Made by a program: the position numbers and the translations under genes. Under the pieces are notes generated by a model. It had not been told where the DNA came from. It searched no databases and saw only the letters and a program-made list of their open reading frames with translations. Below, piece by piece: positions 43,310 to 60,670 of a stretch of DNA of 64,000 nt. Position 1 is the first letter of the stretch. Each line of letters opens with the position of its first letter. The DNA comes from Clostridia bacterium (lineage in GTDB: Bacteria; Bacillota; Clostridia; Oscillospirales; UBA644), in contig JAGAPC010000017.1 of the NCBI GenBank assembly GCA_017623475.1, forward strand, positions 37,375 to 101,374, in the 5' to 3' direction.

Positions 43310-44743
43310 ATGCAGAAACGAATTCTTTCCATTCTTCTGTGCCTTGTTCTGGCGCTGTCCCTCGCCGCGTGCGGGACGGTGACGGAAAATCCCACCGACG
43401 GTTCGGTTGGGGGTAGTATCACCGGCGATTCGGTGGATGCCTCCAATTCTTCGTCTTCGGAGACGAATACCGATTCTTTGACCGATCCTTCCTCCGGAAC
43501 GGTTACCGATTCGGTGACCGACGTTCTTTCCTCCGACAGCTCGGAATTTTCGGATCTGACCGACATGACGGACGACGTGGTTGACGTTGCCCCCGGCGGA
43601 GACGATTTGGGGGGCGGAAATCAGGATGCGTCCGATTCTTCCGGTTCCTCGGACTATATCCCGGAGGATACCTCAGGATCTTCTACGGATGGGGGAGATT
43701 GGTGGGAGGATACAAACTCTGGCACAACGACGCCCGAATCCGATTCCTCCGTTTCTTCGGATCAAAATACCGATTCTTCCGACACCTCGGAGGATGAATC
43801 GGAAAAGGTGGATGTTACGGAAGGACGCAAATTCCTTGCCACGGACATTACCAATCACGGCATCGTGGTCTTTAATCTGGACGCCTGTAACGGCGATTAT
43901 CAAAAATTGACCGACGACAGCGTTTCCGTTTTTTGGGAATGGACCTACGCCGATGACGTCAACGCAACCATGCGGGGACCCGGCTACGGAATCGATTCCG
44001 CAAAGCTTCGGTATTCTGCGTATTACGAGAAAGACGTAGTCATCGCCTGCTCCTCCGGCGGCTGGGCGGGGATCATCGATTATGAAAACCGCACCCTTCT
44101 GTGGGAAAGTAACGCAACGGAGATCGCAAACGCCCACTCCATCGAAATGCTTCCCAACGGAGACGTGGTGGTTGCTTCTTCTCAGGTGGCGACCAACGGA
44201 AAGCCCGGTCTGACTTATTTTGCCCTGTCCTCCGGGTCGCAAACGCCGACGCACACCATCATCAGCGATTCTGCCCACGGCGTCAGCTGGGATCCTGCCA
44301 ACGAATGTCTTTGGGTTTTGAATAACAAAGAGATCTACGCCGTGAAGGTGCAAAATCCGGGACGGAACGGAACCCTGCAGGTGGTGGAAGGAAGCGCCGT
44401 TGGCGGATTTGCCGGCGGGCACGCCCTATCGCCCGTTACGGGAAGCCCCGGAAAATATTGGGTCGGCGCCAACAGTACCATCTTCCAATTTGATACCAAG
44501 ACCAAAACCCTGACCAAGTGCGCCGACGTTTTGCAGCAGCCCGGCATTAAGGGAATCGCCTCCTTTGCCGACGGCACGGTGATTCTTGCGGCGCATAAGA
44601 TCGGCGGAGGCACCCCCACCTACGGCTGGTCGAGCGACGGCTTCCGTATCGTTTCTGCCAACGGAACGAGCGTTACCGTACCTTTCGATACCGATCACCG
44701 GGAATTTTATAAGGTTCAGCCCTTTACCCGGGATTATCAATAA
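43310..44743 (+). CDS. Paralog 1 of an uncharacterised lipoprotein family (long acidic S/T/D linker + ~300 aa conserved domain)
   Basis: Lipobox LSLAAC-G, a ~160 aa low-complexity linker, then the shared motif series ending REFYKVQPFTRDYQ. RBS AAGAGGAG. Confidence 0.9.
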   Translation: MQKRILSILLCLVLALSLAACGTVTENPTDGSVGGSITGDSVDASNSSSSETNTDSLTDPSSGTVTDSVTDVLSSDSSEFSDLTDMTDDVVDVAPGGDDLGGGNQDASDSSGSSDYIPEDTSGSSTDGGDWWEDTNSGTTTPESDSSVSSDQNTDSSDTSEDESEKVDVTEGRKFLATDITNHGIVVFNLDACNGDYQKLTDDSVSVFWEWTYADDVNATMRGPGYGIDSAKLRYSAYYEKDVVIACSSGGWAGIIDYENRTLLWESNATEIANAHSIEMLPNGDVVVASSQVATNGKPGLTYFALSSGSQTPTHTIISDSAHGVSWDPANECLWVLNNKEIYAVKVQNPGRNGTLQVVEGSAVGGFAGGHALSPVTGSPGKYWVGANSTIFQFDTKTKTLTKCADVLQQPGIKGIASFADGTVILAAHKIGGGTPTYGWSSDGFRIVSANGTSVTVPFDTDHREFYKVQPFTRDYQ

Positions 44744-44756
44744 AAAAAAGAGGTGT

Positions 44757-45887
44757 ATGATGATGAAAAAGATTTTTTGCCTATTCCTTTGCCTTTTGAT
44801 GGCGCTGTCTCTGGTTGCCTGCGGAGAAACGGGAGAACCCACCACCGGCGGATCTGATACTTCCGTCCAGGGCGGAACCGACGGCGGCAACACCGACACC
44901 TCCTCCGATTCGGGGGACGTGACGCTGAAGGGCTACGACGAATCCATCGAGCATAAGATTGTTGCCTGCGATATCCGAAACCACGGCATCGTGGTCTTTG
45001 ACCTGAACGCCGTCGGCGGAGATCCGGAGAGACTGACCGAGGACGCCGCCGTGATCTGGGAATGGGACGCGGAAGAAGACCCCAACTGTACGGGCGTTGC
45101 AAAAATTCAAACCAGCATTTCCGGCGTCCGCTACCGCTATTCCGAATATTACAAAAAAGACGTGATCGTTGCCTGCGCCACCTACGGCTGGGTCGGCATC
45201 ATTGATTACGAAACCTGCACCGTCCTTTGGGAAAGCACCGCCCCCATTTTGAACGGCGTTCACTCGGTGGAAATGCTTCCCAACGGTGACGTGGTCGCAG
45301 GGGTTTCGTCGAATCCGGGCGCAGTCGTTTATTTTGCCGTTTCCGCCGGGATCAAAGATCCGGTTCATTCGATTGACAGTCTTTGGTGTCACGGCGTTTG
45401 CTGGGATCCGGAAAACGAATGTCTCTGGGTTTTGGAAACTTACGGCGCCTACCAAGCGTTGATCCAAAATATGGGAACGGAAAACGCCAAGCTGGTGCGG
45501 ATCTCCGGCAGCGGCGCGAACTTCGTCGGGGACGGCGGCGGACACGCCTTTGCTCCCGTTTTGGGCGAGCCCGGTAAGTATTGGGCGTCTGCCGGAAAAG
45601 CCCTTTGGAAATTCGATACGGAAACCGAAACCATGACGAAAGCAAGCAAGCTGTTGAGTAAGGGCAGCATCAAGGGGGTATGCTCCTTCTCCGACGGTAC
45701 GGTGGTGGAATCCATCGCCGGGCTGTGCAAGACCAACGAAAGAGAGTTCGGAAGCGACGGGCTTCGGGTTATTTTAAAGGAATTGAACACCGGCAAGGTT
45801 TCTTCCGTAAAGGACGTGGAATATATCGTTCATTTCCCTGCCCGTGAATTTTATAAGGTGCAAGCCTTTACGAAAAATTATCAATAA
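44757..45887 (+). CDS. Paralog 2 of the uncharacterised lipoprotein family
   Basis: MMMKKIFCLFLCLLMALSLVAC-G lipobox; the start is 13 nt after the paralog 1 stop. Conserved motifs HKIVACDIRNHGIVVFDL, HSVEMLPNGDVV, HGVCWDPENECLWVLE and ending FYKVQAFTKNYQ. Confidence 0.9.
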   Translation: MMMKKIFCLFLCLLMALSLVACGETGEPTTGGSDTSVQGGTDGGNTDTSSDSGDVTLKGYDESIEHKIVACDIRNHGIVVFDLNAVGGDPERLTEDAAVIWEWDAEEDPNCTGVAKIQTSISGVRYRYSEYYKKDVIVACATYGWVGIIDYETCTVLWESTAPILNGVHSVEMLPNGDVVAGVSSNPGAVVYFAVSAGIKDPVHSIDSLWCHGVCWDPENECLWVLETYGAYQALIQNMGTENAKLVRISGSGANFVGDGGGHAFAPVLGEPGKYWASAGKALWKFDTETETMTKASKLLSKGSIKGVCSFSDGTVVESIAGLCKTNEREFGSDGLRVILKELNTGKVSSVKDVEYIVHFPAREFYKVQAFTKNYQ

Positions 45888-45905
45888 CAGAGGAGATGTC
45901 GTGCT

Positions 45906-47024
45906 ATGAAAAAACGCATTTTAGCGCTATTTCTGCTGATTGCACTTGCATTTTCCTTGACTGCCTGCGGCGGAGATGCGGGAAGCACCGATTCTTCCCT
46001 CAATTCCGACGTTTCCGTGCAGACGGGTACGGAGGACGGATCGTCCGATACGGGGGAAGATGTGCAATTAAAGGGATACGACAGTTCCATTGAGCATAAG
46101 TTTATCGCTTGCGATATCCGAAATCACAGCGTCGTGGTTTTCGATCTGGACGCCGTCGGCGGTGATCCCACGCGGTTGGAAGAGGATGCCGCGGTGGTTT
46201 GGGAATGGGATGCGGACGACGATCCGAAGGTGACGCTGGGCATCGGTCCCAATTACGGCATTGACTCTGCAAAATACCGCTATTCCGAATATTACAAAAA
46301 AGACGTTATGATCGTCTGCTCCTCCAACGGTTGGGTCGGCATCGTGGATTACGAGGCAAAATCGCTGCTTTGGGAATATCAGTTGAGCTCCGGACCTCAC
46401 TCGGTGGAAATGCTTCCCTGCGGGGATTTGGTCGTAGCTTCCTCCTTTGATCCCGGTGCTTTGTATTATTTTGCGATTTCCGCCGGCATCGACGCGCCGG
46501 TTCATTCGATCCCCAGCCTCTATTGCCACGGCGTTTCCTGGGATCCGGAAAACGAATGTCTGTGGGTTTTGGAGCATTACGGCGCCTACCAGGCGGTAAT
46601 CCAAAATATGGGAACGGAAAACGCCAAGCTGGTACGGATCTCCGGCAGCGGTGCGAGCTTTGTCGGGGATGGCGGAGGACACGCCTTTGCTCCCATTTTG
46701 GGCGAGCCCGGCAAGTATTGGGCATCGGCAGTAAAGGGACTTTGGAAGTTTGACACCGAAACCGAAACCATGACGAAGGCAAGCGCCTTGCTGACCAAGG
46801 GGCACGTCAAGGGAATCTGCTCGTATTCGGACGGTACGGTGGTGGAAGCGGTCGCCGGACTGTGCAAAAACAACACGTTGGAGTTCGGCAGCGACGGGCT
46901 TCGGGTAATTCTGAAGGAATTAAAAACCGGGAAGGTTTCCTCGGTGAGAGACGCGGAATATATCGTTCCCTTTGTAAGCCGTGAATTCTATAAAATTCAA
47001 CCCTTTACGAAGGATTATCAATAA
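45906..47024 (+). CDS. Paralog 3 of the uncharacterised lipoprotein family
   Basis: MKKRILALFLLIALAFSLTAC-G and the same motif series. The 3' half is nearly identical to paralog 2 at nucleotide level. Confidence 0.9.
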   Translation: MKKRILALFLLIALAFSLTACGGDAGSTDSSLNSDVSVQTGTEDGSSDTGEDVQLKGYDSSIEHKFIACDIRNHSVVVFDLDAVGGDPTRLEEDAAVVWEWDADDDPKVTLGIGPNYGIDSAKYRYSEYYKKDVMIVCSSNGWVGIVDYEAKSLLWEYQLSSGPHSVEMLPCGDLVVASSFDPGALYYFAISAGIDAPVHSIPSLYCHGVSWDPENECLWVLEHYGAYQAVIQNMGTENAKLVRISGSGASFVGDGGGHAFAPILGEPGKYWASAVKGLWKFDTETETMTKASALLTKGHVKGICSYSDGTVVEAVAGLCKNNTLEFGSDGLRVILKELKTGKVSSVRDAEYIVPFVSREFYKIQPFTKDYQ

Positions 47025-47042
47025 TAAAAGGAGTATCATGTT

Positions 47043-48191
47043 ATGAAAAAACGTATTTTAGCGCTGTTTCTGTTGGTCGTGCTGGCACTTTCTTTGGTCG
47101 CCTGCGGCGGAGATCCGGTGAATCCCGATCCCGGTTCTGATTCCAACGTCCCCGTTTCCTCCGGAAATACGGATGCGGAATCCTCCGATTCCAACACCTC
47201 CGATCAAGGAGAAGACACGAAGGTGGAGGGCTACGACGCTTCCATCGAGCACAAATTCCTTGCCTGCGACATCACCAGCCACGGCATCGTGGTCTTTGAC
47301 CTGAACAAATGCGAGGGAGATTGGCAAAACCTGACCAACGACAGTATGTCCGTTGTTTGGGAATGGATTCCCGAACAGGATCCGAACCTGAAAACAGCCG
47401 GCCCCGGTCTTGGAATCGACTCTGCAAAATACCGTTATTCTCCCATTTATGAAAAGGACGTCATCATCGCCTGCTCCTCCAATGGTTGGGTGGGGATCAT
47501 CGATTACGAAGCAAAAACTCTGCTTTGGGAAACGGTCATTCATTCCGGACCTCACTCGGTGGAAATGCTTCCCAACGGAGATCTGATGGTTGCTTCTTCC
47601 TACGATCCGGGCGAATTGGTGTATTTTGCCCTTTCCGCCGATATTAACGAGCCGGTTCACTCTATTCCCAGTATCTACTGTCACGGCGTTTCCTGGGATC
47701 CGGAAAACGAATGTCTGTGGGTTTTGGAAGACAATGGGGTTTACCAGGCATACGTTCAAAATCCGGGCGAAAACGGTAAGATCGTCCGTATCAGCGGCTC
47801 CGGCGATATCTTTGATAAGAACGAAACCGCAGGACACGCCCTTGCTCCCGTCGCCGGTCAGCCCGGTACTTATTGGGTTTCCTCCGGCTCTCAGCTGTGG
47901 CAGTTCAGCGTGGAAGATGAGGATCTGATCAACAAATTCTCCCGCTATAACGATTTGACGCAGGTCAGCATTAAGGGAATCTGCTCCTTCTCCGACGGTA
48001 CGGTCGTGCAGTCGGTTGCCGGGTTGTGCGGCAGCAGCACCCAGCAGTGGAGCAGTGACGGACTCCGTATTATTACCAGAGAGCTGACCCCCGGAAAGGT
48101 TCAGACCCTGAAGGACGTGGTTACGGTTGTTCCCTTCAATCACCGGGAATTTTATAAGATTCAGGCATTCACCAAAGAATATCAGCCCTGA
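47043..48191 (+). CDS. Paralog 4 of the uncharacterised lipoprotein family
   Basis: MKKRILALFLLVVLALSLVAC-G, the same motif series, ends FYKIQAFTKEYQP. Confidence 0.9.
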   Translation: MKKRILALFLLVVLALSLVACGGDPVNPDPGSDSNVPVSSGNTDAESSDSNTSDQGEDTKVEGYDASIEHKFLACDITSHGIVVFDLNKCEGDWQNLTNDSMSVVWEWIPEQDPNLKTAGPGLGIDSAKYRYSPIYEKDVIIACSSNGWVGIIDYEAKTLLWETVIHSGPHSVEMLPNGDLMVASSYDPGELVYFALSADINEPVHSIPSIYCHGVSWDPENECLWVLEDNGVYQAYVQNPGENGKIVRISGSGDIFDKNETAGHALAPVAGQPGTYWVSSGSQLWQFSVEDEDLINKFSRYNDLTQVSIKGICSFSDGTVVQSVAGLCGSSTQQWSSDGLRIITRELTPGKVQTLKDVVTVVPFNHREFYKIQAFTKEYQP

Positions 48192-48210
48192 TGAAAAGGA
48201 GTTTAACGCA

Positions 48211-49335
48211 ATGAAAAAACGCATTTTAGCCTTGTTTTTGCTGGTTGTGTTGGCATTTTCGTTGGTGGCGTGCGGCGGCGATCCCGTTGACACGAACACC
48301 GGATCCGATTCCAGCCTTCCGGCCTCTTCCAATAATTCCGACGTATCCTCCAATACCGACAATTCCGATTCCGGGGATGAGGTAAACAAGGGATATGACG
48401 AAACCATGGAACATAAGATCATTATTTCCGACCGGGAAGCCCATAAGATCCTTGTCATGGATCTGAACGCTTGCAACGGTGATTTTGAGGCGTTGCCCGA
48501 TTCGGACAGCGCAATCGTTTGGGAATACGATCTGGCAAATGATCCCAACCGGAAGACGAGAGACGCCGGTGCCGGTTTGGACTCTGCAAAATATCGTTAT
48601 TCTCCCTATTATGGGAAAGACGTTGTCATCGCCTGCTCTTCCGATGGATGGGCAGGGGTAGTCGATTATGAAGCAAAAACGTTGCTTTGGGAATCGGACG
48701 CTCCGGTTTTGCACAATGCCCACTCGATTGAAATGCTCCCCAACGGCGACGTTGTCGTTGCCGTTGCGAAGGATACTGATGATGCAGGATTGGTGTATTT
48801 CCCCCTTTCTGCCGGTGTTAACACTTACAGCTCTGCCATCCCCAGCAAATATAGTCACGGCGTTTGTTGGGATCCGGAAAACGAGTGGCTTTGGGTGTTG
48901 GAAAATACGGAAACCGTCGCCATTAAAGTAAACGGCATGGGGACGGAAGATGCCAAATTGGTTCGTCTTTCCGGACTTGGTGCACAATCTCAAGGGGGCG
49001 GTGGCGGTCACGCCTTTGCTCCGGTAGGCGGACAGCCCGGAAAGTATTGGGCTTCCTTCGGCGGAAAAGTATATCAGTTTGATTCCGTGGAAGAAGAAAT
49101 GATTCCCGATGCCTATTTCAGCTCCCGCGATACGAAGGGGATTTGTTCCTTTTCCGATGGAACGGTCGTTCAGATCGTCGCCGATGAGGATACGGTGGTT
49201 TCTTCCGATATTCACATCGTGATCCGTAAGCTTTCCGGCGGGAAGAAGCAAGAGCTTCGCAACGTGGAAACGGTGGTCAATTTCCCCGGAATGGTTTTCT
49301 ATAAGGTTCAGGCATTTACGAAAGACTATCAATAA
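48211..49335 (+). CDS. Paralog 5 of the uncharacterised lipoprotein family
   Basis: MKKRILALFLLVVLAFSLVAC-G (ATG 48211, 19 nt after the paralog 4 stop), the same motif series, ends FYKVQAFTKDYQ. Confidence 0.9.
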   Translation: MKKRILALFLLVVLAFSLVACGGDPVDTNTGSDSSLPASSNNSDVSSNTDNSDSGDEVNKGYDETMEHKIIISDREAHKILVMDLNACNGDFEALPDSDSAIVWEYDLANDPNRKTRDAGAGLDSAKYRYSPYYGKDVVIACSSDGWAGVVDYEAKTLLWESDAPVLHNAHSIEMLPNGDVVVAVAKDTDDAGLVYFPLSAGVNTYSSAIPSKYSHGVCWDPENEWLWVLENTETVAIKVNGMGTEDAKLVRLSGLGAQSQGGGGGHAFAPVGGQPGKYWASFGGKVYQFDSVEEEMIPDAYFSSRDTKGICSFSDGTVVQIVADEDTVVSSDIHIVIRKLSGGKKQELRNVETVVNFPGMVFYKVQAFTKDYQ

Positions 49336-49353
49336 TCGAAAGATCGTTATTTT

Positions 49354-50493
49354 ATGAAGAAGCGCATTTTTTCCTTATTTCTTTGTGTTTTAATATCGCT
49401 TTCATTCGTCGCCTGCGGGGGAACTTCTCCCGCAGACGATTCTGTGCAGACCGATTCCGATAAGACAAGCGTGAACGTAAGCACGAAGACCGATAAAAAC
49501 ACCGATACCAACGACGGAGACACCGACGAAAAGGAAGAAGAAATCCCGGGTTATGATCCGACGATGGAGCATAAATTCATCGCCTGTGATATTATCAGCC
49601 ACGGGATCGTCGTCTTTGATCTGAACGCCTGCGACGGAGATTTTCAGCGGTTGACCGACGACGACGTTGCCGTGGTGTGGGAATGGGATCCGGAAGAAGA
49701 TCCAAACCTGAAAACCAAGGGCCCCAATTTGGGAATCGACTCGGCAAAATATCGTTATTCTTCCTATTATGAAAAAGACGTGATGATCGCCTGTTCTTCC
49801 AATGGATGGGTGGGTATCATCGATTACGAGGCAAAAACTCTGCTTTGGGAAACGACCGTCAGCGGTGGCCCTCACTCGGTGGAAATGCTTCCCAACGGAG
49901 ATCTGGTGGTGGGATGTTCCTCAAAACCGGGAGCGTTGGTGTATTACGCCATTTCTGCCGGTTATAACAAAAAGGTTCATTCGATTCCCAGTTTGTACTG
50001 CCACGGCGTTTCTTGGGATCCGGAAGAAGAATGTCTTTGGGTGCTGGAACACACCGGCGTTTACGCGGCGGTCATTGAAAATATGGGGACGAAAAACGGA
50101 AAGATCATTCGCATCGACCGTTCCGGCGCCCAGTTCCCCAAAAACTATACCGGCGGACACGCCTTTTCCCCCGTTGCAGGACAACCGGGCAGATATTGGG
50201 CTTCCTCCGGTGGAGATCTCTGGCAGTTCGACGCCAACGATGAGAAGATGTACAGCAATTACCCCATGAATCTTTACCTGTCACGGGGCTCAATCAAGGG
50301 CGTTACGTCCTTTGCCGACGGCACGGTTATCGAAACCATCGGCGGAATTGGGAACAACTCTCAAAGCTGGAGCAGTGCCGGATTTTTGATCGTCACCCGG
50401 GATCGGGAAACCCAGGAGGTCAAATCGGAATACGTCTTATTCGACCATCGGGATTTTTATAAGATCCAACCCTTCACGAAGGATTATCAATAA
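49354..50493 (+). CDS. Paralog 6 of the uncharacterised lipoprotein family
   Basis: MKKRIFSLFLCVLISLSFVAC-G, the same motif series, ends FYKIQPFTKDYQ. Confidence 0.9.
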   Translation: MKKRIFSLFLCVLISLSFVACGGTSPADDSVQTDSDKTSVNVSTKTDKNTDTNDGDTDEKEEEIPGYDPTMEHKFIACDIISHGIVVFDLNACDGDFQRLTDDDVAVVWEWDPEEDPNLKTKGPNLGIDSAKYRYSSYYEKDVMIACSSNGWVGIIDYEAKTLLWETTVSGGPHSVEMLPNGDLVVGCSSKPGALVYYAISAGYNKKVHSIPSLYCHGVSWDPEEECLWVLEHTGVYAAVIENMGTKNGKIIRIDRSGAQFPKNYTGGHAFSPVAGQPGRYWASSGGDLWQFDANDEKMYSNYPMNLYLSRGSIKGVTSFADGTVIETIGGIGNNSQSWSSAGFLIVTRDRETQEVKSEYVLFDHRDFYKIQPFTKDYQ

Positions 50494-50687: not shown

Positions 50688-50715
50688 AAAAATGAACAGT
50701 GAATAATACAAAACA

Positions 50716-50750
50716 AAAATCCTGCCGACAAGAATCGACAGGATTTTCGT
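50716..50750 (-). terminator. Probable displaced native terminator of tRNA-Ser
   Basis: On the minus strand, directly after the left copy of the tRNA 3'-end repeat: AAAATCCTGTCG-ATTCTTG-TCGGCAGGATTTT then GTTTTG. Confidence 0.6.
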
Positions 50751-50765
50751 TTTGGCGGAGAGTTA
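50751..50765. repeat. Left copy of the 15 bp direct repeat TTTGGCGGAGAGTTA (att-like; duplicates the last 13 nt of tRNA-Ser)
   Basis: An identical 15-mer occurs at 60470-60484, where it overlaps the tRNA 3' end. Confidence 0.85.
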
Positions 50766-51024
50766 AAAACACAGTAAAAATCAGGGTCTAAAAGTCTTCT
50801 CCGATTTTACCGAGTTCTAATGGATTTTTGAGAAAGTCTATTAGAATTTTTTATAGAACTGCGCTTATTTTCACTCCAAAATCATCCCTTTGGCAGTGCA
50901 ATAAAAAGCACCGGTTGAGGCATACAGCACACAAAATCGTGTTGACTTTTTACAACCGAGAATAAAAATGCGGTAATCTTTATGGCATTATTTCGAAAAA
51001 ATTATAAAATACAACGTTTATATA

Positions 51025-51053
51025 TTGCTATTTTAGTGATTTTATTGTATAAT
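51025..51053 (+). promoter_or_regulatory. Sigma-A promoter of the pilus locus
   Basis: TTGCTA, 17 nt spacer, TATAAT. Confidence 0.5.
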
Positions 51054-51131
51054 GTAGTATCCTGGAATAGTTGTATCTAATATTAAATCATCACAAAATG
51101 TCTTATACATTTGTTTAGGAGATAAAAGACA

Positions 51132-51671
51132 GTGGCAAAACATTCAAAGAAAAAGGCTAACTTTTTTCAGACTGCCTTATTTAAGACAACTTTGAAAATC
51201 GTTATTATCGTGATTATAACCGCTTCTCTTCTTCTGAATCTGTTTACCTTTATCATGCCGGTAGTCAAGTACTATGGCACAAGTATGTCGCCCACATTGG
51301 AGGACGGACAGATTTTAATCGTCAGCAAAATGGCTGAGATAGAAAGCGGAGATATCATAGCGTTTTATTATAATAACAAGGTTTTGGTGCGACGTGTTGT
51401 GGCGACAGGTAACGAACAGATATCCATCGACATTTTCGGTGCTGTTTCCGTAAACGGCGAGGAACTGAATGAACCTTATATAGAAAGCAAAACCTTGGGA
51501 CAATGCAATCTCGATTTCCCCTACAATGTGCCGACAGGAGCCTTTTTTGTTCTCGGCGATAACAGGGATGCTGCAATGGATAGCCGATTAGAAGAAATCG
51601 GAGTTGTAACGGATGACAGACTGATCGGAAAGGTTGTTTTCTCGGTCAAACCTTTTGGGTCAATAAAGTAA
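51132..51671 (+). CDS. Signal peptidase I (S26) homolog, SipA-like pilus-associated
   Basis: GTG start after TAGGAGA, an N-terminal TM helix, box B GTSMSPT and box E GDNRDAAMDSR. Box D reads VRRVVA instead of the usual KR(I/V)(I/V)G. Confidence 0.8.
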   Translation: MAKHSKKKANFFQTALFKTTLKIVIIVIITASLLLNLFTFIMPVVKYYGTSMSPTLEDGQILIVSKMAEIESGDIIAFYYNNKVLVRRVVATGNEQISIDIFGAVSVNGEELNEPYIESKTLGQCNLDFPYNVPTGAFFVLGDNRDAAMDSRLEEIGVVTDDRLIGKVVFSVKPFGSIK

Positions 51672-51698
51672 TTTTCTTTTGCAAAGAGTGGAACGACA

Positions 51699-54600
51699 AT
51701 GAATGCTTTTGAAAATAGAAAACTGAATATAAAAAGCATTTTATTTGTTGCAACCACGGCGGTTCTTACTGCCGCGGTTTGCGTTTTGTTGTTCTGCCTT
51801 AATATCACTCCTGCCGTGGCGCTGGAGCAGGAAATTCGTTGCGGTATCGAGGAACATACACACACGGATAATTGCTATAACGGTGATTTTCTCGTTTGCG
51901 AAAAACCCGCACATACCCACGACGGGAACTGCTACATTGTTCTACTGAAAGACAACAATATAAACGGCATTTTAACGTTGCTTGGTAACAGTGAAACCCG
52001 TTCTCTTGAATATGTTATAACCGATACAATGTCATCGGCATTGACTTTTAATTCAAATATAAATAGTGCCGAGTCATCCGGCGGTGTTAGCACAATGGCT
52101 TTGAATCAGGATACAGTCGCAGAGCTTAACAATACCATCTCGGATGAAGAGGAATTGCCCGATATCGTACTAAATGAAAACATTAATAATGTTCAAACTC
52201 TTGCTGTAGAGGATGAAGAACAACAGCAACAGCAGCCGTCAAGTAATGTATCCACATTAAATATTGAGGAGGAAGCTGACACTTCAAATTACACAGCAAA
52301 CTTTTACATTTATTTAGATGGAGAATGGACGTGCATTGGCTCACTTCCATTCACATCAGCAAGAAACGGTAGCCGTTATAACGGCACAATCGCAACATCG
52401 GATATTCTGGATCTTGTCAACAACAAATTGGGTACTGAATATGCTTACAATTCTTTTGATATTGCAGTATCTACATCGCAGAACAGCGGCTATTCTAAAA
52501 GCAATATCGGAATGGCTTCGGTAACGACAACGATTGCTTACAGACAGTCAAGCACGAATATACGATATGCACGACACATTCGACTAATACCGGAAGGCGG
52601 TTCTGCAAGCAGTACAGCCTTTGCCTTCTATACGGTTAAATATGTCTATCCTGACGGGAATACAGTAACTACATACGTGCGTTCGGGAACGACGGTAACC
52701 CTACCTACAGGAAACTACGAGTGGTCAGACGGTGATAATACCTATTCTGCTGATGAAGCGGTCACCATAACCGGAACCACAACGTTTGAAGCAACAATGC
52801 TTGGTCCTCCCACCTATATTAATATCAATTACGACGTTAATTTCCCGACTGTTAGCGGTGTTACTGTGACTACGGCTCCTACCATTGCCGGACACGCTAC
52901 AACAACACTCAAGGATGAATATACTGAAAATTCCGTTGCAACTGTTCGCAATGTTTCTATGCAATCTGTTCAAGGAACTGTGAATAACAACAGCACGGGA
53001 CTAACCCGTGTGATACAGTTCAAGGGTTGGAGGGTTGGCAATACCGATGTTATTCTTCAGCCAAACACCAAACTTATATGGGAAGAGCTGCTTCAGTATT
53101 CGAATAATACGACCAGTTTAAAACTAACTGCCGTGTGGGATTACAGTCCTCTGCAAACAGCAACCTTCTTTATTCGTTTTGACTCGGTTGCTGTAGATAC
53201 CGACGGAAATATCACCGGACAGGATTCCAATAAATACACGAAACAAATTTTTGCGGCTTATGTCGGTGGAGTTGATACATCCCTTAGCACGTCTCAGCTT
53301 CAAACAAAATACGGAATTGCAGATACAACGTCAGACAATTCTTACGGAGCCGACCAAGAAATTCGTGCTCTTTACGGTGAAAGAACAGACGGTGCGTGGC
53401 TAAGTGCCTTCCCGACAGACGAATTTGTTTTTGAGGAATTGGTAGAATATGCTCAAACGGGGTATCTTTCGGTAGATGGTATAGCCGTAAAAGCAGAAGA
53501 TCGGAACAGTAAGGAATATGCTATACGTTGGTATGTGTTTAAAAGCCAGGACGATGCGTGGCATATCGACGGAAAATTGGTTAAAAAGGTTGGACTTATC
53601 CACGTCTATAAGACGTTTGCAGGTAATCAGGAACTGATAGCCGAAGCAAAGACTGACTTTTACATTGATGCAACCGATGTTTCTACTGGCGTAAACACGG
53701 TTTTGAATTTGGATAATTATACTTCCTATGATTCAGCAACCGATACGTATATGTGGGAAATCACTGATGTTGATTACGGAGAGTATTGGGAAATAACGGA
53801 GCATCCCCACCAATTTAATGATGGTTCTGTCGACTTTAGCATATATTCCGAGTACACGGTTATGGATGCTCACGGTGACCAATCCATTACCGGCACAGGA
53901 ACATCTCTTACGGTTAGCGGTATGACCTATGCGCTTGATGAGGGCAGTGATGAAGTTCTGCGAGCTGAATTTACAAACATATATAACCGTAGCGATTCGA
54001 TCATCATTAAAAAGCAGGATAGCTTAACCGGTGTTTCAATCGGTGGTGCTGTATTCCAGTTATCACAAAATGGACAGGCTCTTAAATTTACATACAATGC
54101 CGAAACTGACCGTTATCAATACGATCCTGAAAACGGAACTGTGGTGAATCTCGAGGGTAATGCGAACGGTTATTACGAAATCTGTATTGATAATTTCAGT
54201 TATGACCTTGGCCCGATTACCATCAAGGAAAAAACTGCGCCAACAGGATACACACCGATCGGAAACATCGAAATTGGTTATACTGACGATGGCAAAACGG
54301 TCGGCATACTCAGCGGTAATAGCGAACTGATAAAATACATGAGTGGTGTTTTGATTGTTGGAAACAGCACGGATTCATCCTCAGTTACAGTAAAAAAAAG
54401 AATGGGAGTGCGACGAATCCGAGTGGCAGGATGTTACTGTTCAGCTTTTAGCAAATGGTAAGCTTGTTACTACCGTTATTGCAGGTGTCCAGCCGCAGGT
54501 GGTTTTGAATGCCGACAATAATTGGCAGTATTCATGGGATAACCTTCCTGTGTATGTCAACGGTGTAAAGATTGATTGGTCTGTTAAAGAAACAATGATT

Positions 54601-55188
54601 GGCCCAGAGGCTGCCAAGGCAGACGGCTCGTTTATCAACTGGCTGGTATCCTATGAATTGCCAATGATATCAACTGATGTCGATGGCAATGAAAACACCT
54701 TGCTTACCATTATCAATACAACCAAACGTGTCATGCTTCGTCTGACAAAAACCGACCTTGGCAAAACAACGCAGCTTTCGGGCGCAACCTTTATTCTCGA
54801 AGCGGTAGATGCCGACGGAAAAGTACTGACGAGTGAAGTTTCCAAAACAGCCACAACCGGTGCGGCAGGTACATTAGTGTTTGATAACTTAAAGTGCGGT
54901 GTGAGGTATCGTTTGACTGAAACTGAGGCCCCAAGCGGTTATCTAAAAACGAATGAATATATTTATTTCGTTATTAACGAAGACGGTACTGTTTCGGTGG
55001 AAGAAAGTTTTTATGCCGAAGCCGGTTCTACAGCCTACAACCTTATCGTTCGTAACGGTATGGTGGTTGACCTTCCTGAATCGGGAAGTAACGGAACAAG
55101 TATGTTTTATGCACTTGGCTTGTTGCTTATGGCAATAACCGCGAGCATTTACATAAGATATCTCCGTAAAAGGAGGTGTCACGATTAA
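51699..55188 (+). pseudogene. Large pilus tip adhesin-like surface protein (SpaA/Cna-B-type domains, LPESG sorting signal) split by a 1-nt frameshift in an A8 run
   Basis: ORFs 51699-54461 and 54499-55188 are linked through A8 at 54392-54399. The downstream frame is open from 54394 and reads VKKEWECDESEWQDVTVQLLANGK.., a Cna-B-like repeat. The C-terminus has LPESGSNG, a TM helix and RKRR. Confidence 0.8.
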
Positions 55189-55237
55189 TATGCTTTCAAT
55201 AAATTCAAAAAATAATTTAAGAAAAGGAGTTAAAACA

Positions 55238-56950
55238 ATGAAAGCAATCAAAAAGTCCCTCGCGATCCTCGTATGCCTTTGCCTGGTGTTTAGTTGCATG
55301 GCCATGACGGTTTTCGCAACTGAAGCTACAGGCAGCATCACCATCCAAAACCCCGGCAACTCTGCAGCAACTGTTGCAGGCAAAACATTTAATGTCTACA
55401 AGATTTTCAATGCAATTACCAACGGTAACAACACCTCATACAGTTGGCATACACACGAAAACGACGAGATTCCGTTCTACGATTTCTTCTATGGAGAATG
55501 GACAAATAGCAAAAACCAAACCGTTACCGGTGTTTTAGGAAAGCAAGAAAACGGCAATGTTCAGGGCGCAGTTGAGTATGTAGCAAAAATTACTGACAGT
55601 TTATCGCTTTCTCAGTTTGCAGAAGATCTGCATAAGTATATCATTGACACCGGCATTGAAACCGAGATTCCCTCTGTTGAAGCAGGAGACACCGCTACCT
55701 CTGTGAATATTCCCAACCTGAGCTACGGTTATTATCTGGTATATGATGCTACAACGCTTGAAGGCGGCTCTGTTCGTTCGGCTGTTATGCTCTCAACCGT
55801 TAATAAGGATGCGGTTATTACCCTGAAAGCAAACCGCCCCCAGATTGAAAAGCAGGTTTTAGAAAACGACGGAGAAACTTGGGGCAAGGCGACATCGGTT
55901 GCTATCGGTGATGAGGTTGAATTTAAGATTACCACCCTCGTTCCTTCCCACACAATGTATACGGAATATTCATACTACATTGAAGATGTTCTCCCCGAAG
56001 GCTTGGAGCTGAAAGACGGTTCTATTAAGGTTTTCAAAAATGATGTTGAAGTAGATAACACCGATAACGCCTATTACACCCTTAGCGACGCAGGTGAAGG
56101 TCTTGAGGGACCCTATGATTTCAAAGTAGATTTCACAGGCCCTATCAGTGATAAAAATAAATTTGAGGTAAACGATGTTATTACCATTGAATACACTGCC
56201 ATTGTGGATGAAGATATCGCTCCTCACGTTGCCAACAAGAACGAAGCTACGCTTTTTTACCACAATGACCCCACTGCCGCAACTCCCACCTTTGGTAGCA
56301 GCTCAGCTACAGCAAACGTATATACTTATATGTTCGTTATGACTAAGTTCTCTGAGGATGCTAACGGCAACTTCTCTAATCACACCCGTCTTGCAGGCGC
56401 AAAGTTTAAATTCTATGAAAAAGGCTCCAGCGAACCTATTAAGTTTATTCTTAAAAATGTTGACGGTATTGACCGCTATTTTGTAGCACCGGCTGATACT
56501 ACCGAAACAATATATACTGAGATTGAAGTAATCAGCAGCGGACTTCCCGAAGGAGATATTGAAAACTCTACATATCTTGGCGGAAATATGGGTGATATTA
56601 CTCTGTTCGGTCTTGCCGAGGGCGAATATGAAATAGAGGAAACAGCAGCTCCCGATGGCTATGTTCTTCCTGAAAACCGTTTTTCAATTAAAATTGAAGA
56701 CGTTGTTGATGACTACGGCAACATTTCAACCCTGACCGTTACAGGTGACCATACCGGAAACGGTTCTTTGGGTAATGCGGGCGGTAACTACCGTAATTTG
56801 CTTACCTGGGTTGATATTGCTAACAAACCCGGTGCAGCACTTCCCGAAACCGGTGGTATCGGTACCACAATCTTCACCGTTTTAGGTATCGTACTTATGG
56901 CAGGTGCAGCAGCTTTTTTTACTTCAAGAAAAAGAAGTAGTGTGGCATAA
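55238..56950 (+). CDS. Major (backbone) pilin, LPETG-anchored
   Basis: Signal peptide MKAIKKSLAILVCLCLVFSCMAMTVFA, E-box-like YEIEETAAPDGY, and a C-terminal LPETGG, TM helix and RKR. RBS AAGGAG. Confidence 0.8.
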   Translation: MKAIKKSLAILVCLCLVFSCMAMTVFATEATGSITIQNPGNSAATVAGKTFNVYKIFNAITNGNNTSYSWHTHENDEIPFYDFFYGEWTNSKNQTVTGVLGKQENGNVQGAVEYVAKITDSLSLSQFAEDLHKYIIDTGIETEIPSVEAGDTATSVNIPNLSYGYYLVYDATTLEGGSVRSAVMLSTVNKDAVITLKANRPQIEKQVLENDGETWGKATSVAIGDEVEFKITTLVPSHTMYTEYSYYIEDVLPEGLELKDGSIKVFKNDVEVDNTDNAYYTLSDAGEGLEGPYDFKVDFTGPISDKNKFEVNDVITIEYTAIVDEDIAPHVANKNEATLFYHNDPTAATPTFGSSSATANVYTYMFVMTKFSEDANGNFSNHTRLAGAKFKFYEKGSSEPIKFILKNVDGIDRYFVAPADTTETIYTEIEVISSGLPEGDIENSTYLGGNMGDITLFGLAEGEYEIEETAAPDGYVLPENRFSIKIEDVVDDYGNISTLTVTGDHTGNGSLGNAGGNYRNLLTWVDIANKPGAALPETGGIGTTIFTVLGIVLMAGAAAFFTSRKRSSVA

Positions 56951-57051
56951 AAGAAATATTCGTTTTTGACGGAGCGACTCTTTTAGCCACCCCGCAAAGC
57001 TATTTCTTTTTCTAAACTCAAAGGATATTTTATGAAAGGAGGGAAAGACCA

Positions 57052-57912
57052 ATGAAAAAACATTTACCAACGATCATTGTGGGGATTATATTTCTCTGCG
57101 GTCTTTCCCTCTTTTTGTATCCTACTGTTAGTAATCTGTACAATCAGCATCTGAACAACAAGCTGATTGGCGATTATAATGAAGCGTTTGAAAATACAAC
57201 ACCTGAAGAATTTAATCAAGCTATGAAGGATGCGGTTGATTTTAATGAAAACCGTGCAAATCCCGAAAAACTGAAAGAGCTTGGTTTAACCTATGAAGAA
57301 GTACTTAATGTTGCGGATAACGGTGTGATGGGATATATTGAAATTCCTAAGATCAGCGTATCACTCATCATTTATCACACAATAGATGAGGATGTGTTGC
57401 AGAAAGGTATTGGTCATGTTCCGGAGTCCCATCTGCCCGTAGGCGGCAAAAGCACGCACAGCGTTCTTGCCGGGCATACCGGACTTCCATCTGCAAAATT
57501 ACTTACAAATATCGATCATCTAAAAGTTGGGGATCGATTCTATCTTCATGTGTTAAACGAGGTTCTGGAATACCAAATTGATGATGTATCTGTCGTAGAG
57601 CCGGATGAAGTATCAAGGCTCAATGTAATCAGCGGGAAAGACTGTGTTACTTTAGTCACCTGCACACCCTACGGTGTTAACTCTCACCGCCTTTTAGTGC
57701 GGGGTGTTCGCGTAGATGGTTCCGATCTGTCTGCTAATAAAGACGGCGTTACTAACGAACTTTTGAATATAGATATGAAATACCTGCTAACCTTTTCTTT
57801 GATTGGGCTCTGCATTATCTTTATAGCGGTAGTGAAATTGCGTTCCATTTATAAAAAGAGAAAGGCACAGAGCAATGAAGGCGGCGAAAACAAGAATGAA
57901 AAAGACAGTTAA
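57052..57912 (+). CDS. Class C (pilin-polymerising) sortase
   Basis: N- and C-terminal TM helices, HTG His motif (LAGHTGL), TLVTCTPYGVNSHRLLVRG with the catalytic Cys/Arg. Confidence 0.85.
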   Translation: MKKHLPTIIVGIIFLCGLSLFLYPTVSNLYNQHLNNKLIGDYNEAFENTTPEEFNQAMKDAVDFNENRANPEKLKELGLTYEEVLNVADNGVMGYIEIPKISVSLIIYHTIDEDVLQKGIGHVPESHLPVGGKSTHSVLAGHTGLPSAKLLTNIDHLKVGDRFYLHVLNEVLEYQIDDVSVVEPDEVSRLNVISGKDCVTLVTCTPYGVNSHRLLVRGVRVDGSDLSANKDGVTNELLNIDMKYLLTFSLIGLCIIFIAVVKLRSIYKKRKAQSNEGGENKNEKDS

Positions 57913-58783
57913 AACAATCTGTGTGCTACTGCTTAGTATGTTGTTTATTGTCGGGGCAGTTATACCCTGTTATGCGGCAACTGAAAGCGGAAAGATCTCC
58001 GTATTGTTGGAAGATAAAGATAATAATATAATTGATGGAGTGAATGTACATATTTGCAAAATTGCAGATATGAATAACACAGGATATTACCCGTCTAAAA
58101 GCTTTGAAAATTCCGGTATATCTATTTCGGGAATTATTAACGCTCCTACTGAGCCTACAGCAAAGGATATTACAGACTACATCAGAGATAACAATATAGA
58201 ATCTGCATCTGCTATAACAGAAAACGGTAAGGTGTCCTTTTCTGATTTGGGCTTAGGAATATGGCTGGTGTTCTGTGAGGAAGATGGCAAATACACATTT
58301 AATCCTTATTTTGTTTTCTTACCGTATGAATCTGAGGGCAAACTGTATTACGAAATCACATCCTCTCCCAAGGCAGAGGACAGTAAACCCAATCTAATCA
58401 ATGTATATGTTATAAAAAAATGGGACGATAAAAACAATGCCGCAAAGAAAAGGCCTGAATCGGTAACGGTAGAACTTCTTGACGGAGAGAAGGTTATTTC
58501 CTCTGCGGTCTTAAATGAACAAAACGGATGGGCTCATACTTTTACCGATGTTTCGAAAGACGGTGATTATTCCGTCAAAGAAAAGAAAGTTGAAAATTAT
58601 ACTGCCCAATATAACGGCGATATATCCAACGGTTTTATCGTTACCAATTCCTATAATGGAGAAAAACTGCCTCAAACCGGACAGCTCTGGTGGCCGATCG
58701 TGATTATTTCCGTTGCCGGTATTGCCTTTGTTCTGCTCGGAATTATGGAACTGGGAGCAAGAAAAAATGGAAAGAAGAAATAA
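57875..58783 (+). CDS. Minor/basal pilin with a Cna-B-type domain, LPQTG-anchored
   Basis: Signal peptide (alternative start ATG 57896), VIKKWDDKNNAAKKRPESVTVELLDGEKV Cna-B signature, and a C-terminal LPQTGQ, TM helix and RKNGKKK. Confidence 0.8.
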   Translation: MKAAKTRMKKTVKTICVLLLSMLFIVGAVIPCYAATESGKISVLLEDKDNNIIDGVNVHICKIADMNNTGYYPSKSFENSGISISGIINAPTEPTAKDITDYIRDNNIESASAITENGKVSFSDLGLGIWLVFCEEDGKYTFNPYFVFLPYESEGKLYYEITSSPKAEDSKPNLINVYVIKKWDDKNNAAKKRPESVTVELLDGEKVISSAVLNEQNGWAHTFTDVSKDGDYSVKEKKVENYTAQYNGDISNGFIVTNSYNGEKLPQTGQLWWPIVIISVAGIAFVLLGIMELGARKNGKKK

Positions 58784-59345
58784 GCGAGGACGAATGTTTC
58801 TCATAATTGGATTGCTCCTTATCTTCGTTGCCGGTGGTTGGTATGTTTATAACATTGTAGAAGATAATAATGCGGGCAAAAGCGCAACCGATTTGCTCGA
58901 GAAAATTGAGAAGCAGCAAACGGAACAAGACAATGACGAGGAATCTCCGGTTATCATTGTTGAGGGGGATGCTTTCTGCGGGAGGCTCGCTATAGAAAAA
59001 CTTGATATTGAACTTCCGGTTTATGATGAGTGGAATTATACAAGACTCAAAACTGCGCCGTGCCGTTACACAGGCAGTATTGATACAAATAATATCATTA
59101 TCGCAGCACACAATTATAAAAGTCATTTCGGTAACCTAAAGCAACTGCAAATTGGTGACGAAATTTCATTCGTAGATGCATATGGTACACAGCATCGTTA
59201 TTCTGTTAAAGAAATCACGACTTTAGATGGAACTGCCGTTACGGATATGAAGTCAGGTGAATGGGATTTTACGCTGTTTACCTGTACCAAAGGCGGCGAA
59301 CAACGAGTAACAGTGCGTTGCAACCGTATTATTAATAATAAATAA
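58767..59345 (+). CDS. Second sortase (small, housekeeping-like; class not assigned)
   Basis: N-terminal TM helix, IIAAHNY His motif, FTLFTCT catalytic Cys, RVTVRC Arg. Confidence 0.75.
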   Translation: MERRNKRGRMFLIIGLLLIFVAGGWYVYNIVEDNNAGKSATDLLEKIEKQQTEQDNDEESPVIIVEGDAFCGRLAIEKLDIELPVYDEWNYTRLKTAPCRYTGSIDTNNIIIAAHNYKSHFGNLKQLQIGDEISFVDAYGTQHRYSVKEITTLDGTAVTDMKSGEWDFTLFTCTKGGEQRVTVRCNRIINNK

Positions 59346-59439
59346 TTATTTGACAAAGAGCCTTGCTATATGCAAGGTTTTTTGTTTTTTCGCTGGACTT
59401 GTGAAAAGTATTGTGATATGTATTTGTGTTGCAACGCAC

Positions 59440-59856
59440 ATGACAACACTTGAAGATTTATACTACGGCAACATCAGTCCGCACGAAAGGTATATCAAGC
59501 GTGGTACAAGGGTGGACAAACTCGTAAAATTAATATGCAAAAACGAGGAAGAACTCAATGCCGGTCTTACGGAAAAGCAAAAGGAAGAAACCAAGCCAAC
59601 GCAAACCACAATGAAGGCTAACGATCTGACTACACGTTTCCCTGAAATCCTCGAAAAGAAAGGGCTGCGCCGTATGCGATTTCACGATCTTCGCCACTCC
59701 TGCGCCTCGGTGCTTCTCGCACAAGGCGTGCCTATGAAACAGATTCAGGAATGGCTCGGACATAGTGATATGAGCACCACGGCGAATATCTACAGCCACC
59801 TCGATGCCGTCACCAAAGCAGACACCGGCGCCGCAATGAGTAAAGCGCTGGGGTGA
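59440..59856 (+). pseudogene. Chimeric remnant: N-terminal fragment of a small conjugative-element-type protein fused to the C-terminal ~80 aa of a tyrosine recombinase
   Basis: MTTLEDLYYGNISPHERYIK... then ...RFHDLRHSCASVLLAQGVPMKQIQEWLGHSDMSTTANIYSHLD (HxxR and the catalytic Tyr region). The whole N-terminal and core-binding part of an integrase is absent. Confidence 0.7.
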
Positions 59857-59868
59857 GAGTATAAGTAA

Positions 59869-59894
59869 AGGGCTGACCGTGCGGTCAGCCCTTG
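59869..59894. terminator. Bidirectional terminator hairpin
   Basis: AAGGGCTGACCG-TG-CGGTCAGCCCTT between convergent ORFs. Confidence 0.7.
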
Positions 59895-59898
59895 ATAT

Positions 59899-60387
59899 CT
59901 ATAATAAAAAAGCAATAACACAAGCAACAACAACGAAAAATGACGCTACAATAGTGAAACATCCGGTGGGAGTTTTTGGTGGGGTGGTGTAAGTATAATT
60001 TGGTTGCTGATGCTGTTTTTGTTGTGAGTTTGAAGCAGGACGAGGTTGAGTTGTTTGCTTCCTCAACATGGCGATGGGGTCTGTTTGATTTAATATTCTT
60101 GTCCTAAAAGAACGAACAAAGTCAATGTCTTCCTGAGAACAGATATCAACCATCATTGAATTACGAGAATGCGCCAGTTCATTCCGCACATTTCTTGCTG
60201 ATTTTAAATGATTATAATCAGATGTCCAGCCTGAAACTTTAAATGTTCCTTGATATGCTTTTCTGTCCATATCTTCAAGATACAAGGTGACACCAAGCTT
60301 CTTATCAATAGATTCGCCGTAGATATCTCTACACAAATTGTCAAGTGCTTTGAACTCATCAAAAAACTCATAATTCAAATAGCCCAT
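59899..60387 (-). CDS. Hypothetical protein with a Q/P/T-rich linker and a C-terminal TM anchor
   Basis: 162 aa ORF, AT-rich codon usage like the rest of the island. C-terminal CFTIVASFFVVVACVIAFLL. Contains the string RNELAH. Confidence 0.6.
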   Translation of the reverse strand: MGYLNYEFFDEFKALDNLCRDIYGESIDKKLGVTLYLEDMDRKAYQGTFKVSGWTSDYNHLKSARNVRNELAHSRNSMMVDICSQEDIDFVRSFRTRILNQTDPIAMLRKQTTQPRPASNSQQKQHQQPNYTYTTPPKTPTGCFTIVASFFVVVACVIAFLL

Positions 60388-60471
60388 AAGTGTCTCCTTT
60401 CGTAATTATAAAAGTAAAAGCCGCAAAGCATCATTACTTTGCGGCTTTTCGTGTGCGGTGAAAACCGCATT

Positions 60472-60559
60472 TGGCGGAGAGTTAGGGATTCGAACCCTAG
60501 GTCCCTTTCGGGACACAGCATTTCGAGTGCTGCACCTTCGACCACTCGGACAACTCTCC
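60472..60559 (-). tRNA. tRNA-Ser (anticodon CGA), CCA encoded
   Basis: The minus strand reads GGAGAGTTGTCCGAGTGGTCGAAGGTGCAGCACTCGAAATGCTGTGTCCCGAAAGGGACCTAGGGTTCGAATCCCTAACTCTCCGCCA. It shows a 7 bp acceptor stem, anticodon stem CAGCA/TGCTG with loop CUCGAAA, a long variable arm and a GGTTCGAATCC T-loop. Confidence 0.92.
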
Positions 60560-60641
60560 GTTTTATTCGGTTACGGTTAAATTTTGCGCGGCCGAGGGGC
60601 GCGTTTGCTCAAAATTCAATCCGTTTCCGAATTACTAAACT

Positions 60642-60670
60642 ATTATAATATATTTCCCTTGGTTTGTCAA
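60642..60670 (-). promoter_or_regulatory. Consensus sigma-A promoter upstream of tRNA-Ser
   Basis: Minus strand: TTGACA, 17 nt spacer, TATAAT. Confidence 0.6.

Follow-up and report, generated by a model that had tools for sequence, protein, structure and literature searches.

The locus described here can be compared with three kinds of described systems. Genomic islands that target tRNA genes by means of a tyrosine integrase are defined by Islander (PMC4383910), and in Firmicutes the decayed remnants of integrative and conjugative or integrative and mobilisable elements (ICEs and IMEs) that retain both attachment sites, attL and attR, are known as cis-mobilisable elements (CIMEs) (PMC5704250). 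The pili encoded in the FCT region of Streptococcus pyogenes are heterotrimeric, sortase-assembled fibres with a SipA/LepA accessory protein (PMC4049620). The present analysis covers a stretch of 64,000 nucleotides, referred to below as the window, from contig JAGAPC010000017.1 (positions 37,375 to 101,374 of the forward strand; assembly GCA_017623475.1) of a metagenome-assembled genome (MAG) with the organism label "MAG: Clostridia bacterium". It focuses on an AT-rich island between positions 50751 and 60484, which adjoins the 3' end of a tRNA-Ser(CGA) gene and carries a six-gene sortase-pilus operon. We consider it very probable that an integrase inserted this island, with a pilus cargo of the Acutalibacteraceae type, at the 3' end of the tRNA, and that the later loss of its recombination module left a CIME-like remnant.

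The island is delimited by the 15-mer TTTGGCGGAGAGTTA, of which an exact search found two copies in the window, a distal, attR-like copy at 50751-50765 and a proximal, attL-like copy at 60470-60484. With up to two mismatches allowed, not a single additional match was obtained in the 64 kb (0.11 expected), and among all loci compared the 15-mer is present only in contigs of the same species, at the identical two positions. A preliminary description of this DNA, which was made from the letters alone, had placed the repeat at the same coordinates and had named the possibility that the 15-mer is a frequent genomic word as an objection; in the window and the loci compared it is not frequent. ARAGORN predicts one tRNA in the 64 kb, the tRNA-Ser(CGA) at 60472-60559 on the minus strand, which is the presumed target of integration and has a promoter at 60642-60670 with a 12/12 match to TTGACA-17-TATAAT. 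The right copy of the repeat consists of the last 13 nt of this gene, including the encoded CCA, as the preliminary description had stated, and 2 further nt. Read on the tRNA strand, the left copy, that is the displaced tRNA 3' end, leads into a hairpin of 20 pairs with a T-run behind it (50754 to 50709, terminator scan); RNA folding places the hairpin at -29.9 kcal/mol with z = -9.1. This strong hairpin (50709-50754, minus strand) is presumed to be the tRNA-Ser's own terminator, now 9.7 kb away from the gene, as had already been proposed from the hairpin and U-run behind the left copy.

The interval between the two repeats (50766-60469) has a GC content of 0.413 compared with 0.529 for the remainder of the window, in which no other 9.7 kb stretch falls below 0.517. 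The same difference is found in the codon usage, with a GC content at third codon positions of 0.40 inside the island as opposed to 0.66 outside, and with ACA and ATA being chosen at 34% and 22% inside as opposed to 3% and 2% outside. Both shifts are limited to the island interval. The profiling that the preliminary description had called for thus confirms the abrupt switch to an AT-rich composition that it had seen by eye, while its estimate of mid-to-high 50s for the surrounding DNA was a little too high, the value being about 53%. Since the DNA stems from a MAG contig, chimeras classically arise at tRNA genes and the repeat is short, it has to be considered whether a metagenomic chimera was joined at a conserved tRNA, or whether a coincidental 15-mer flanks a native operon of odd composition. 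However, at least four other samples (ruminant-gut metagenomes), assembled independently, show both junctions at 99.97-100% identity, and one 32 kb contig (L001/L008) covers the entire island, so that a chimera or misassembly does not explain it. In addition, the 15-mer is unique to the two boundaries, and these agree in position with the tRNA end, the terminator and the step in GC content, and the codon usage is incompatible with a native origin. An artefact or chance arrangement therefore retains a minute probability, and the chimera, chance and native-operon explanations are effectively excluded.

According to the open reading frames (ORFs), the Pfam domains and the NCBIfam scans, the cargo follows the order reported in the preliminary description: SipA-like peptidase, tip adhesin, SpaH/EbpB major pilin, class C sortase, minor pilin and second sortase, all on the plus strand. 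The operon is preceded by a non-coding AT-rich left arm (50766-51110, 30% GC) with a promoter-like site at 51025-51053 (match to TTGCTA-17-TATAAT), and it is followed by a terminator at 59352-59386 according to the terminator scan. The major, or backbone, pilin (55238-56950) belongs to the SpaH/EbpB family (NF033902, 101 bits at a cut-off of 95; also TIGR04226), contains the Pfam domains GramPos_pilinBB, SpaA and Gram_pos_anchor, ends in an LPETG signal and has FimA-like pilins as its relatives in the PDB. The lysine of its LKAxRP motif (K197), the E-box YEIEETAAPDGY and the LPxTG signal are near-invariant across 17 major-pilin homologues. The class C, pilin-polymerising sortase (57052-57912) scores 249.6 bits against NF033745 (cut-off 160) and carries a Sortase domain. 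The minor pilin (57896-58783; Cna_B 8.5e-19) is intact and bears an LPQTG signal in its translation, and from its size and gene position it is probably the basal pilin. The second sortase (58794-59345; Sortase domain 4.2e-17) scores under every NCBIfam class cut-off, and among PDB entries it matches the Ebp class C sortase best. A major pilin with LPXTG signal, motif lysine, E-box and isopeptide domain thus stands together with a class C sortase, and the complete sortase-pilus locus claimed in the preliminary description is present as a full gene set, with the qualification that the adhesin of the window is frameshifted.

This tip-adhesin gene (51699-55188), which encodes Cna_B/SpaA domains and an LPESG sorting signal, is a single gene of 1162 aa in the sibling contig L001/L008. 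In the window, a +1 frameshift in a poly-A run (A8 at 54392-54399, as opposed to A7) splits it into ORFs of 920 aa and 229 aa, so that the large adhesin of the preliminary description is there, but not as one intact gene. A conserved phase-variation (contingency) tract was considered and excluded, because the run, which encodes Lys-Lys-Glu codons, varies from 2 to 7 nt in 21 homologues. As it is not conserved, the change is a plain homopolymer indel, and the eighth A may be a real mutation or a homopolymer or assembly error. The N-terminus of the adhesin (window 51830-51930, residues ~45-80) contains a repeated Cys/His motif, CGIEEHTHTDNCY ... CEKPAHTHDGNCY, which looks like a metal-binding site.

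The first gene of the operon (51132-51671) encodes a SipA/LepA-like signal-peptidase homologue (Peptidase_S26 6.5e-28; TIGR02227). Signal-peptidase homologues of pilus clusters occur with or without the catalytic dyad, and S. pyogenes SipA is devoid of both dyad residues, while some SipA homologues retain both (PMC4049620). Alignment of the island protein to SpsB and S. pyogenes SipA shows that the Ser is kept (SMSPT) and that the Lys is replaced by Arg (YVKRVIG to LVRRVVA). A protein with an S26 fold and a location in a pilus cluster has therefore lost the Ser-Lys dyad only at the Lys, unlike S. pyogenes SipA, in which both residues are lost. In the proposed assembly, the SipA-like protein would act as a pilus assembly chaperone, and the class C sortase would polymerise the LPETG major pilin via the conserved pilin-motif lysine. 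The 1162-aa adhesin would be placed at the tip of the pilus and the LPQTG minor pilin at its base, and the second sortase would probably anchor the fibre to the cell wall. The island shares with FCT-region and SpaH/EbpB-type pili the tip adhesin, the small basal pilin, the pilin-specific class C sortase, the major pilin with its motif lysine, E-box and LPXTG signal, and the signal-peptidase-like accessory gene. It differs from them in its gene order and in the second, unclassified sortase within the operon, and unlike the pathogen S. pyogenes, its host is an uncultured gut commensal.

Between the operon and the tRNA, only about 1.1 kb is left of the mobility backbone, namely a DUF6809::integrase C-terminal fusion, a DUF6548 gene and an element end that is conserved. 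The fusion is a 138-aa ORF (59440-59856, plus strand; PF20648 and PF00589) in which the N-terminal half of DUF6809 continues in frame into the last ~75-85 residues of a tyrosine integrase (59602-59856, GC 53.7%). A tblastn search with a full-length 404-aa relative matched the window at residues 320-392 only, and no integrase-like sequence other than this stump was found in the window. The preliminary description was therefore right in placing a tyrosine-recombinase fragment near the tRNA; the alignment and tblastn show, however, that it is not a simple fragment but part of the in-frame DUF6809 fusion. No complete recombinase, excisionase, relaxase or conjugation gene was detected among the island ORFs by Pfam, NCBIfam and PHROG scans. 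The DUF6548 protein (59899-60387, minus strand; PF20185 2.8e-41), which has a C-terminal membrane helix and is encoded by the element gene closest to the tRNA, has no PHROG or NCBIfam match, and the literature collection searched contains no paper mentioning DUF6809, DUF6548 or DUF6528, the last being a family encoded immediately left of the island. The element end (60416-60469, minus strand; RNA fold and terminator scan) consists of a small hairpin at 60454-60469 and a terminator hairpin at 60416-60449, which now terminates tRNA-Ser(CGA).

This backbone has relatives elsewhere. The ~60 nt past the CCA show significant similarity between the window and the loci L015 and L019 (none of 500 shuffles reaches the score), while the tRNA bodies differ, and in unrelated hosts relatives of the integrase fragment and of these ~60 nt occur at tRNA-Ser(CGA). 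Relatives of the integrase stump number in the thousands, with many fragments among them, and DUF6809::integrase fusions recur with differing junctions, one of them (P0002) with the identical junction and 83% identity. In the human-gut contig L014, an interrupted integrase remnant adjoins tRNA-Ser(CGA) in a window-like layout with other surface-structure cargo, and five Mfa_like_1 fimbrial-type genes lie directly upstream of the DUF6809 gene (L014 867-12008). The ~50 nt upstream of the DUF6809 start in the window (59391-59440) are conserved in DNA with L014 (82% over 59391-59586) and are translated as "protein" in several database entries, such as P0030 and P0062; they are possibly a conserved leader or regulatory element of this element family. 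The loci L015-L018 contain an element of ~6.7 kb with a pseudogenised integrase adjoining tRNA-Ser(CGA). This element is bounded by a 53-bp tRNA-derived repeat that reaches from the anticodon loop to CCAAA, and the 3' boundary of the L015 repeat, at which CCGCCAAA is followed by TGCGG, is also that of the window. Attachment sites of the pSAM2 type, a classic example among tRNA-targeting islands, extend from the anticodon loop to the tRNA 3' end. Within L015, the main integrase gene is disrupted by a frameshift and an in-frame stop, one tRNA-Ser(CGA) element contains two integrase 3'-end remnants that are separate from each other (10391-10574 and 11947-12167), and the displaced tRNA half at 6557-6645 is called as tRNA-Ser(TGA) by ARAGORN, probably falsely. 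Through the shared tRNA target, boundary and element end, the remnant in the window is tied to a family of elements with tRNA-Ser(CGA) as their integration site.

In comparison with Islander-type islands (PMC4383910), the locus has the intact tRNA gene at one end, the displaced 3' fragment of the same tRNA in direct orientation at the far end (15 bp, as opposed to the 53 bp of L015), tyrosine-recombinase sequence beside the tRNA, foreign composition and alternative islands at the same locus in other strains. In contrast to these islands, the integrase gene is represented by a C-terminal stump of only ~80 terminal codons, the displaced tRNA fragment amounts to 13 nt, and there are no excisionase or transfer genes. 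As in CIMEs, integration and transfer genes have been lost and attL and attR are retained, both repeats being perfect and the tRNA-proximal end being conserved with relatives. Unlike in CIMEs, no relaxase or conjugation gene is present in any backbone relative examined, so that there is no evidence for an ICE or IME ancestry. As the integrase is a stump, the island would not be autonomously mobile. The perfect repeats, together with intact integrases of the same broad family, which occur in abundance in the same samples and have the same tRNA as their target, raise the question of whether a related integrase and excisionase from another element could still excise and move the island in cis or in trans, as CIME behaviour is documented for streptococcal elements (PMC5704250). 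We regard this as rather improbable: the intact integrases at the locus cut the anticodon loop and not the 3'-end repeat, no integrase arm-type binding sites could be identified in the island, and neither the same-species contigs examined nor a 39-mer search of the JGI metagenome collection yielded circular or empty forms. A similarity of the left arm to the distal arm of L015 was dropped, since it did not exceed shuffled controls.

The likely origin of the cargo emerged when species-representative genomes were scanned with the class C sortase, which led to 25 loci. These belong to ruminant-gut MAGs assigned to Acutalibacteraceae, unclassified Clostridia and Eubacteriales, Faecousia and Faecalimonas, and all 25 contain the six genes in identical order. 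In the low-GC MAGs, the GC content of the operon (0.38-0.42) equals that of the flanks, and in the higher-GC hosts L039, L041 and L045 the operon is correspondingly GC-rich. As the operon tracks its flanks in the other hosts, it is native there and foreign in the window, and low-GC Acutalibacteraceae are the likely donor pool. The donor search proposed in the preliminary description thus returned the same operon in 25 ruminant-gut MAG species, with a host-matched composition in low-GC Acutalibacteraceae, and together with the foreign composition, the repeat and the integrase remnant, it supports the earlier view of a horizontally acquired adhesion module at a tRNA 3' end. The best DNA matches are L030, with 81% identity across the entire operon, and L033, with 90% across 55451-59333. 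At the protein level, identities to the donor-type loci are 96-97% for the major pilin as opposed to 74-85% for sortase and adhesin, which indicates that the operon itself is mosaic. In a goat-caecum MAG (L035 3264-13574), the six-gene pilus operon begins directly after tRNA-Met and tRNA-Trp. There, the GC content falls from 0.50 to 0.40 at the operon start, AATCGTGGTCAAA repeats adjoin the tRNA, and an unrelated 396-aa tyrosine integrase follows; judging from this layout, L035 may be an independent island with the same pilus operon at another tRNA.

The DNA homology to the donor-type loci is confined to window 51111-59350, no homology to them being found left of 51111, and tRNA-Ser adjoins the operon in none of the 25. 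The fact that the homology ends exactly at the operon limits, that the operon has its own promoter-like site and terminator, and that the backbone occurs in no donor locus is in line with another history, in which a small tRNA-Ser(CGA) element integrated and decayed and the pilus operon from an Acutalibacteraceae donor was inserted separately, so that the 15-bp repeat would mark the old element and not the arrival of the pilus. The GC content of the integrase stump, which differs from that of the remaining island, the DUF6809::integrase junction found elsewhere at 83% identity, and the first 87 nt of the left arm, which are common to L011/L012 with another interior, also fit such a history. 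Against this, the non-coding arms and the DUF6548 gene are AT-rich like the operon (0.30-0.39), as would be expected from a single foreign origin, neither recombination scars nor insertion sequence (IS) elements were found beside the operon, and the layout of L014 (adhesin or fimbrial cargo, DUF6809, integrase remnant, tRNA-Ser(CGA)) suggests that the family carries surface-structure cargo at this position. On balance, arrival in two steps is a possible but less favoured account.

The preferred reading, a tRNA-directed insertion followed by loss of the recombination module, would have proceeded as follows. The attP of a tyrosine-integrase element targeting tRNA-Ser(CGA) would have recombined with the 3' end of the host tRNA, which would have duplicated TAACTCTCCGCCAAA and displaced the native terminator by 9.7 kb, with the element end supplying the tRNA with a new terminator. 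The element would have brought, or gained afterwards, the six-gene pilus operon native to low-GC ruminant-gut Acutalibacteraceae. A subsequent deletion would have joined DUF6809 to the last ~80 integrase codons, and the island would since have been locked in place, with both att-like ends kept and no recombinase of its own.

Several observations weigh against this reading. The repeat is only 15 bp long, and the distal flank is without a longer tRNA-like stretch, in contrast to L015. The fusion shared with P0002 suggests that the truncation of the integrase may predate the arrival in this host, and since the stump has a host-like GC content (0.537), the backbone is mosaic. No donor locus exceeds 90% DNA identity, and as a DUF6809, integrase or DUF6548 backbone adjoins the operon in none of the 25 donor-type loci, cargo and backbone have never been seen travelling together. 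Finally, an orthologous empty site, in which the tRNA is joined directly to the 50709-50754 terminator, was not found in the same-species contigs examined, and the JGI metagenome collection does not contain the exact 39-mer of the empty site.

The same-species contigs are found in only two states, with either the pilus island or another element at the locus and never with an empty attB; ruminant samples in which this species occurs include ERZ28654132, ERZ28654397 and ERZ28654462. The first state, with the pilus island, was observed in at least four samples. On the left side of the second state, L011 and L012 agree with the window in the left repeat and in the 87 nt that come next (50766-50852) and then diverge, as a pilus-less variant in other samples (L011 11500-11551, L012 4295-4344). 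The interior beyond 50852 has no match in any locus compared, and the arrangement looks like a second cargo or element on the same left arm. On the right side of the second state, L002 and L003 diverge within the tRNA, directly after the anticodon loop, at 60520. The syntenic relative L019, in which the flanking EEP protein is 67% identical, has the element end after its tRNA as well. In the more distant L020/L021, a near-identical tRNA is directly followed by a hairpin terminator in a different neighbourhood, which shows the appearance of an unoccupied tRNA end. The EEP protein found no relative in genome_contigs, and the species is therefore without a close representative there. Immediately left of the island, the surroundings also contain a tandem array of six paralogous DUF6528 genes (window 43310-50493; 372-477 aa), whose products have lipoprotein-like N-termini; the last two genes share about 77% DNA identity over 650 nt. 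The assumption of an otherwise core region, as made in the preliminary description, could not be upheld, because the neighbourhood is a multi-element hot spot.

The alternative occupant of the tRNA, named X here, has a characteristic layout: the 5' half of the host tRNA-Ser ending in CTCGAAAT is followed by a conserved spacer of ~150 nt, a complete tRNA-Ser(CGA), a terminator and an integrase module with a full-length integrase (390-404 aa), Xis and a MazF-like protein. X breaks the tRNA-Ser at the anticodon loop, after CTCGAAAT (CGA) or CTTGAAAT (UGA), without rebuilding it. Broken host 5' halves with element sequence behind them were found in L002, L003, L049, L051, L053, L054-L056, L058 and L060, and the complete element-borne tRNA-Ser, which apparently has its own promoter, lies ~150 nt past the junction and has the same anticodon as the disrupted gene in every case. 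At least nine host contexts contain X, among them other strains of the species in the window (L002 6927-7013, L049 219-498, L053 11228-11500, L060 8100-8600, also L003 and L050). The same architecture stands beside different host genes with different host 5' halves in L051 and L053, and a sister group at tRNA-Ser(UGA) carries a UGA tRNA (L054-L058). As some contigs end 46-52 nt past the divergence, X was first taken for a possible IS element, which was ruled out by the tRNA, integrase and Xis of L049/L050. An exact-pattern search of IMG/VR with the X end and the left arm of the island gave no match, and the far junction (attR) of X was not recovered, since every contig breaks 1-3 kb past the integrase module.

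In the tRNA-dependent lysogeny of actinobacteriophages, the tRNA is not reconstructed on integration, and the element has a gene for a tRNA whose isotype is the same (Guerrero-Bustamante and Hatfull, 2024; PMC10865867). X, as opposed to the pilus island, resembles this system in that a tyrosine-integrase element breaks a tRNA-Ser that is left unrebuilt and brings a complete tRNA-Ser with the same anticodon. It differs in its hosts, which are gut Clostridia and not actinobacteria, in not being recognised as viral, in carrying Xis and MazF-like genes and in being known from one junction only. Two further observations concern layers of tRNA sequence at the locus. In L060 (8100-8787; GCA_017623895.1, a close relative), two truncated tRNA-Ser 5' halves, each of them cut off at the anticodon loop and with an X-type spacer behind it, are stacked behind a shared promoter, and a complete tRNA and an integrase 3' end follow; this stack looks like serial tRNA replacement. 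The window itself contains a 14-nt stub, GGAAACGGATTGAA (60615-60628, minus strand), directly behind the tRNA promoter. An alignment places the stub in register with the initial 14 nt of a different tRNA-Ser(CGA) in L019 and L060, in which the tRNA start directly follows the promoter that they have in common with the window. The present tRNA-Ser of the window may thus be a replacement copy from an older element and the stub the 5' end of the ancestral tRNA, although the alignment is only suggestive of this.

By analogy with the phage system, we lean slightly towards the view that the tRNA-Ser of gut Clostridia is contested by a large, undescribed family of integrative elements with a tRNA-dependent strategy based on promoter-equipped replacement tRNAs. 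If this is true, successive hits by X would leave stacked 5' tRNA halves, and the pilus island would be one layer of a hot spot of serial replacement. To our knowledge, the tRNA-dependent strategy has so far been shown only for actinobacteriophages. In our opinion, the X family and the layered hot spot are more interesting than the pilus island itself.

Islands anchored at tRNA genes, decayed integrases and horizontally transferred sortase-pilus clusters are well known, and the case described here comes from an uncultured lineage. The locus would record the recent transfer of a complete adhesion organelle from low-GC bacteria of the Acutalibacteraceae type to an uncultured member of the Clostridia with a GC content of ~53% in the ruminant gut, and it provides a precise, testable map of how DNA would have been inserted and then immobilised. 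It is also a natural case of several mobile elements competing for one tRNA gene, and X would, by analogy, widen the range of the recently described tRNA-dependent strategy of integration to include gut Firmicutes. Among the major determinants of attachment to mucus, plant fibre and other cells are sortase pili, and the strain-level presence or absence of the island could therefore affect niche occupation.

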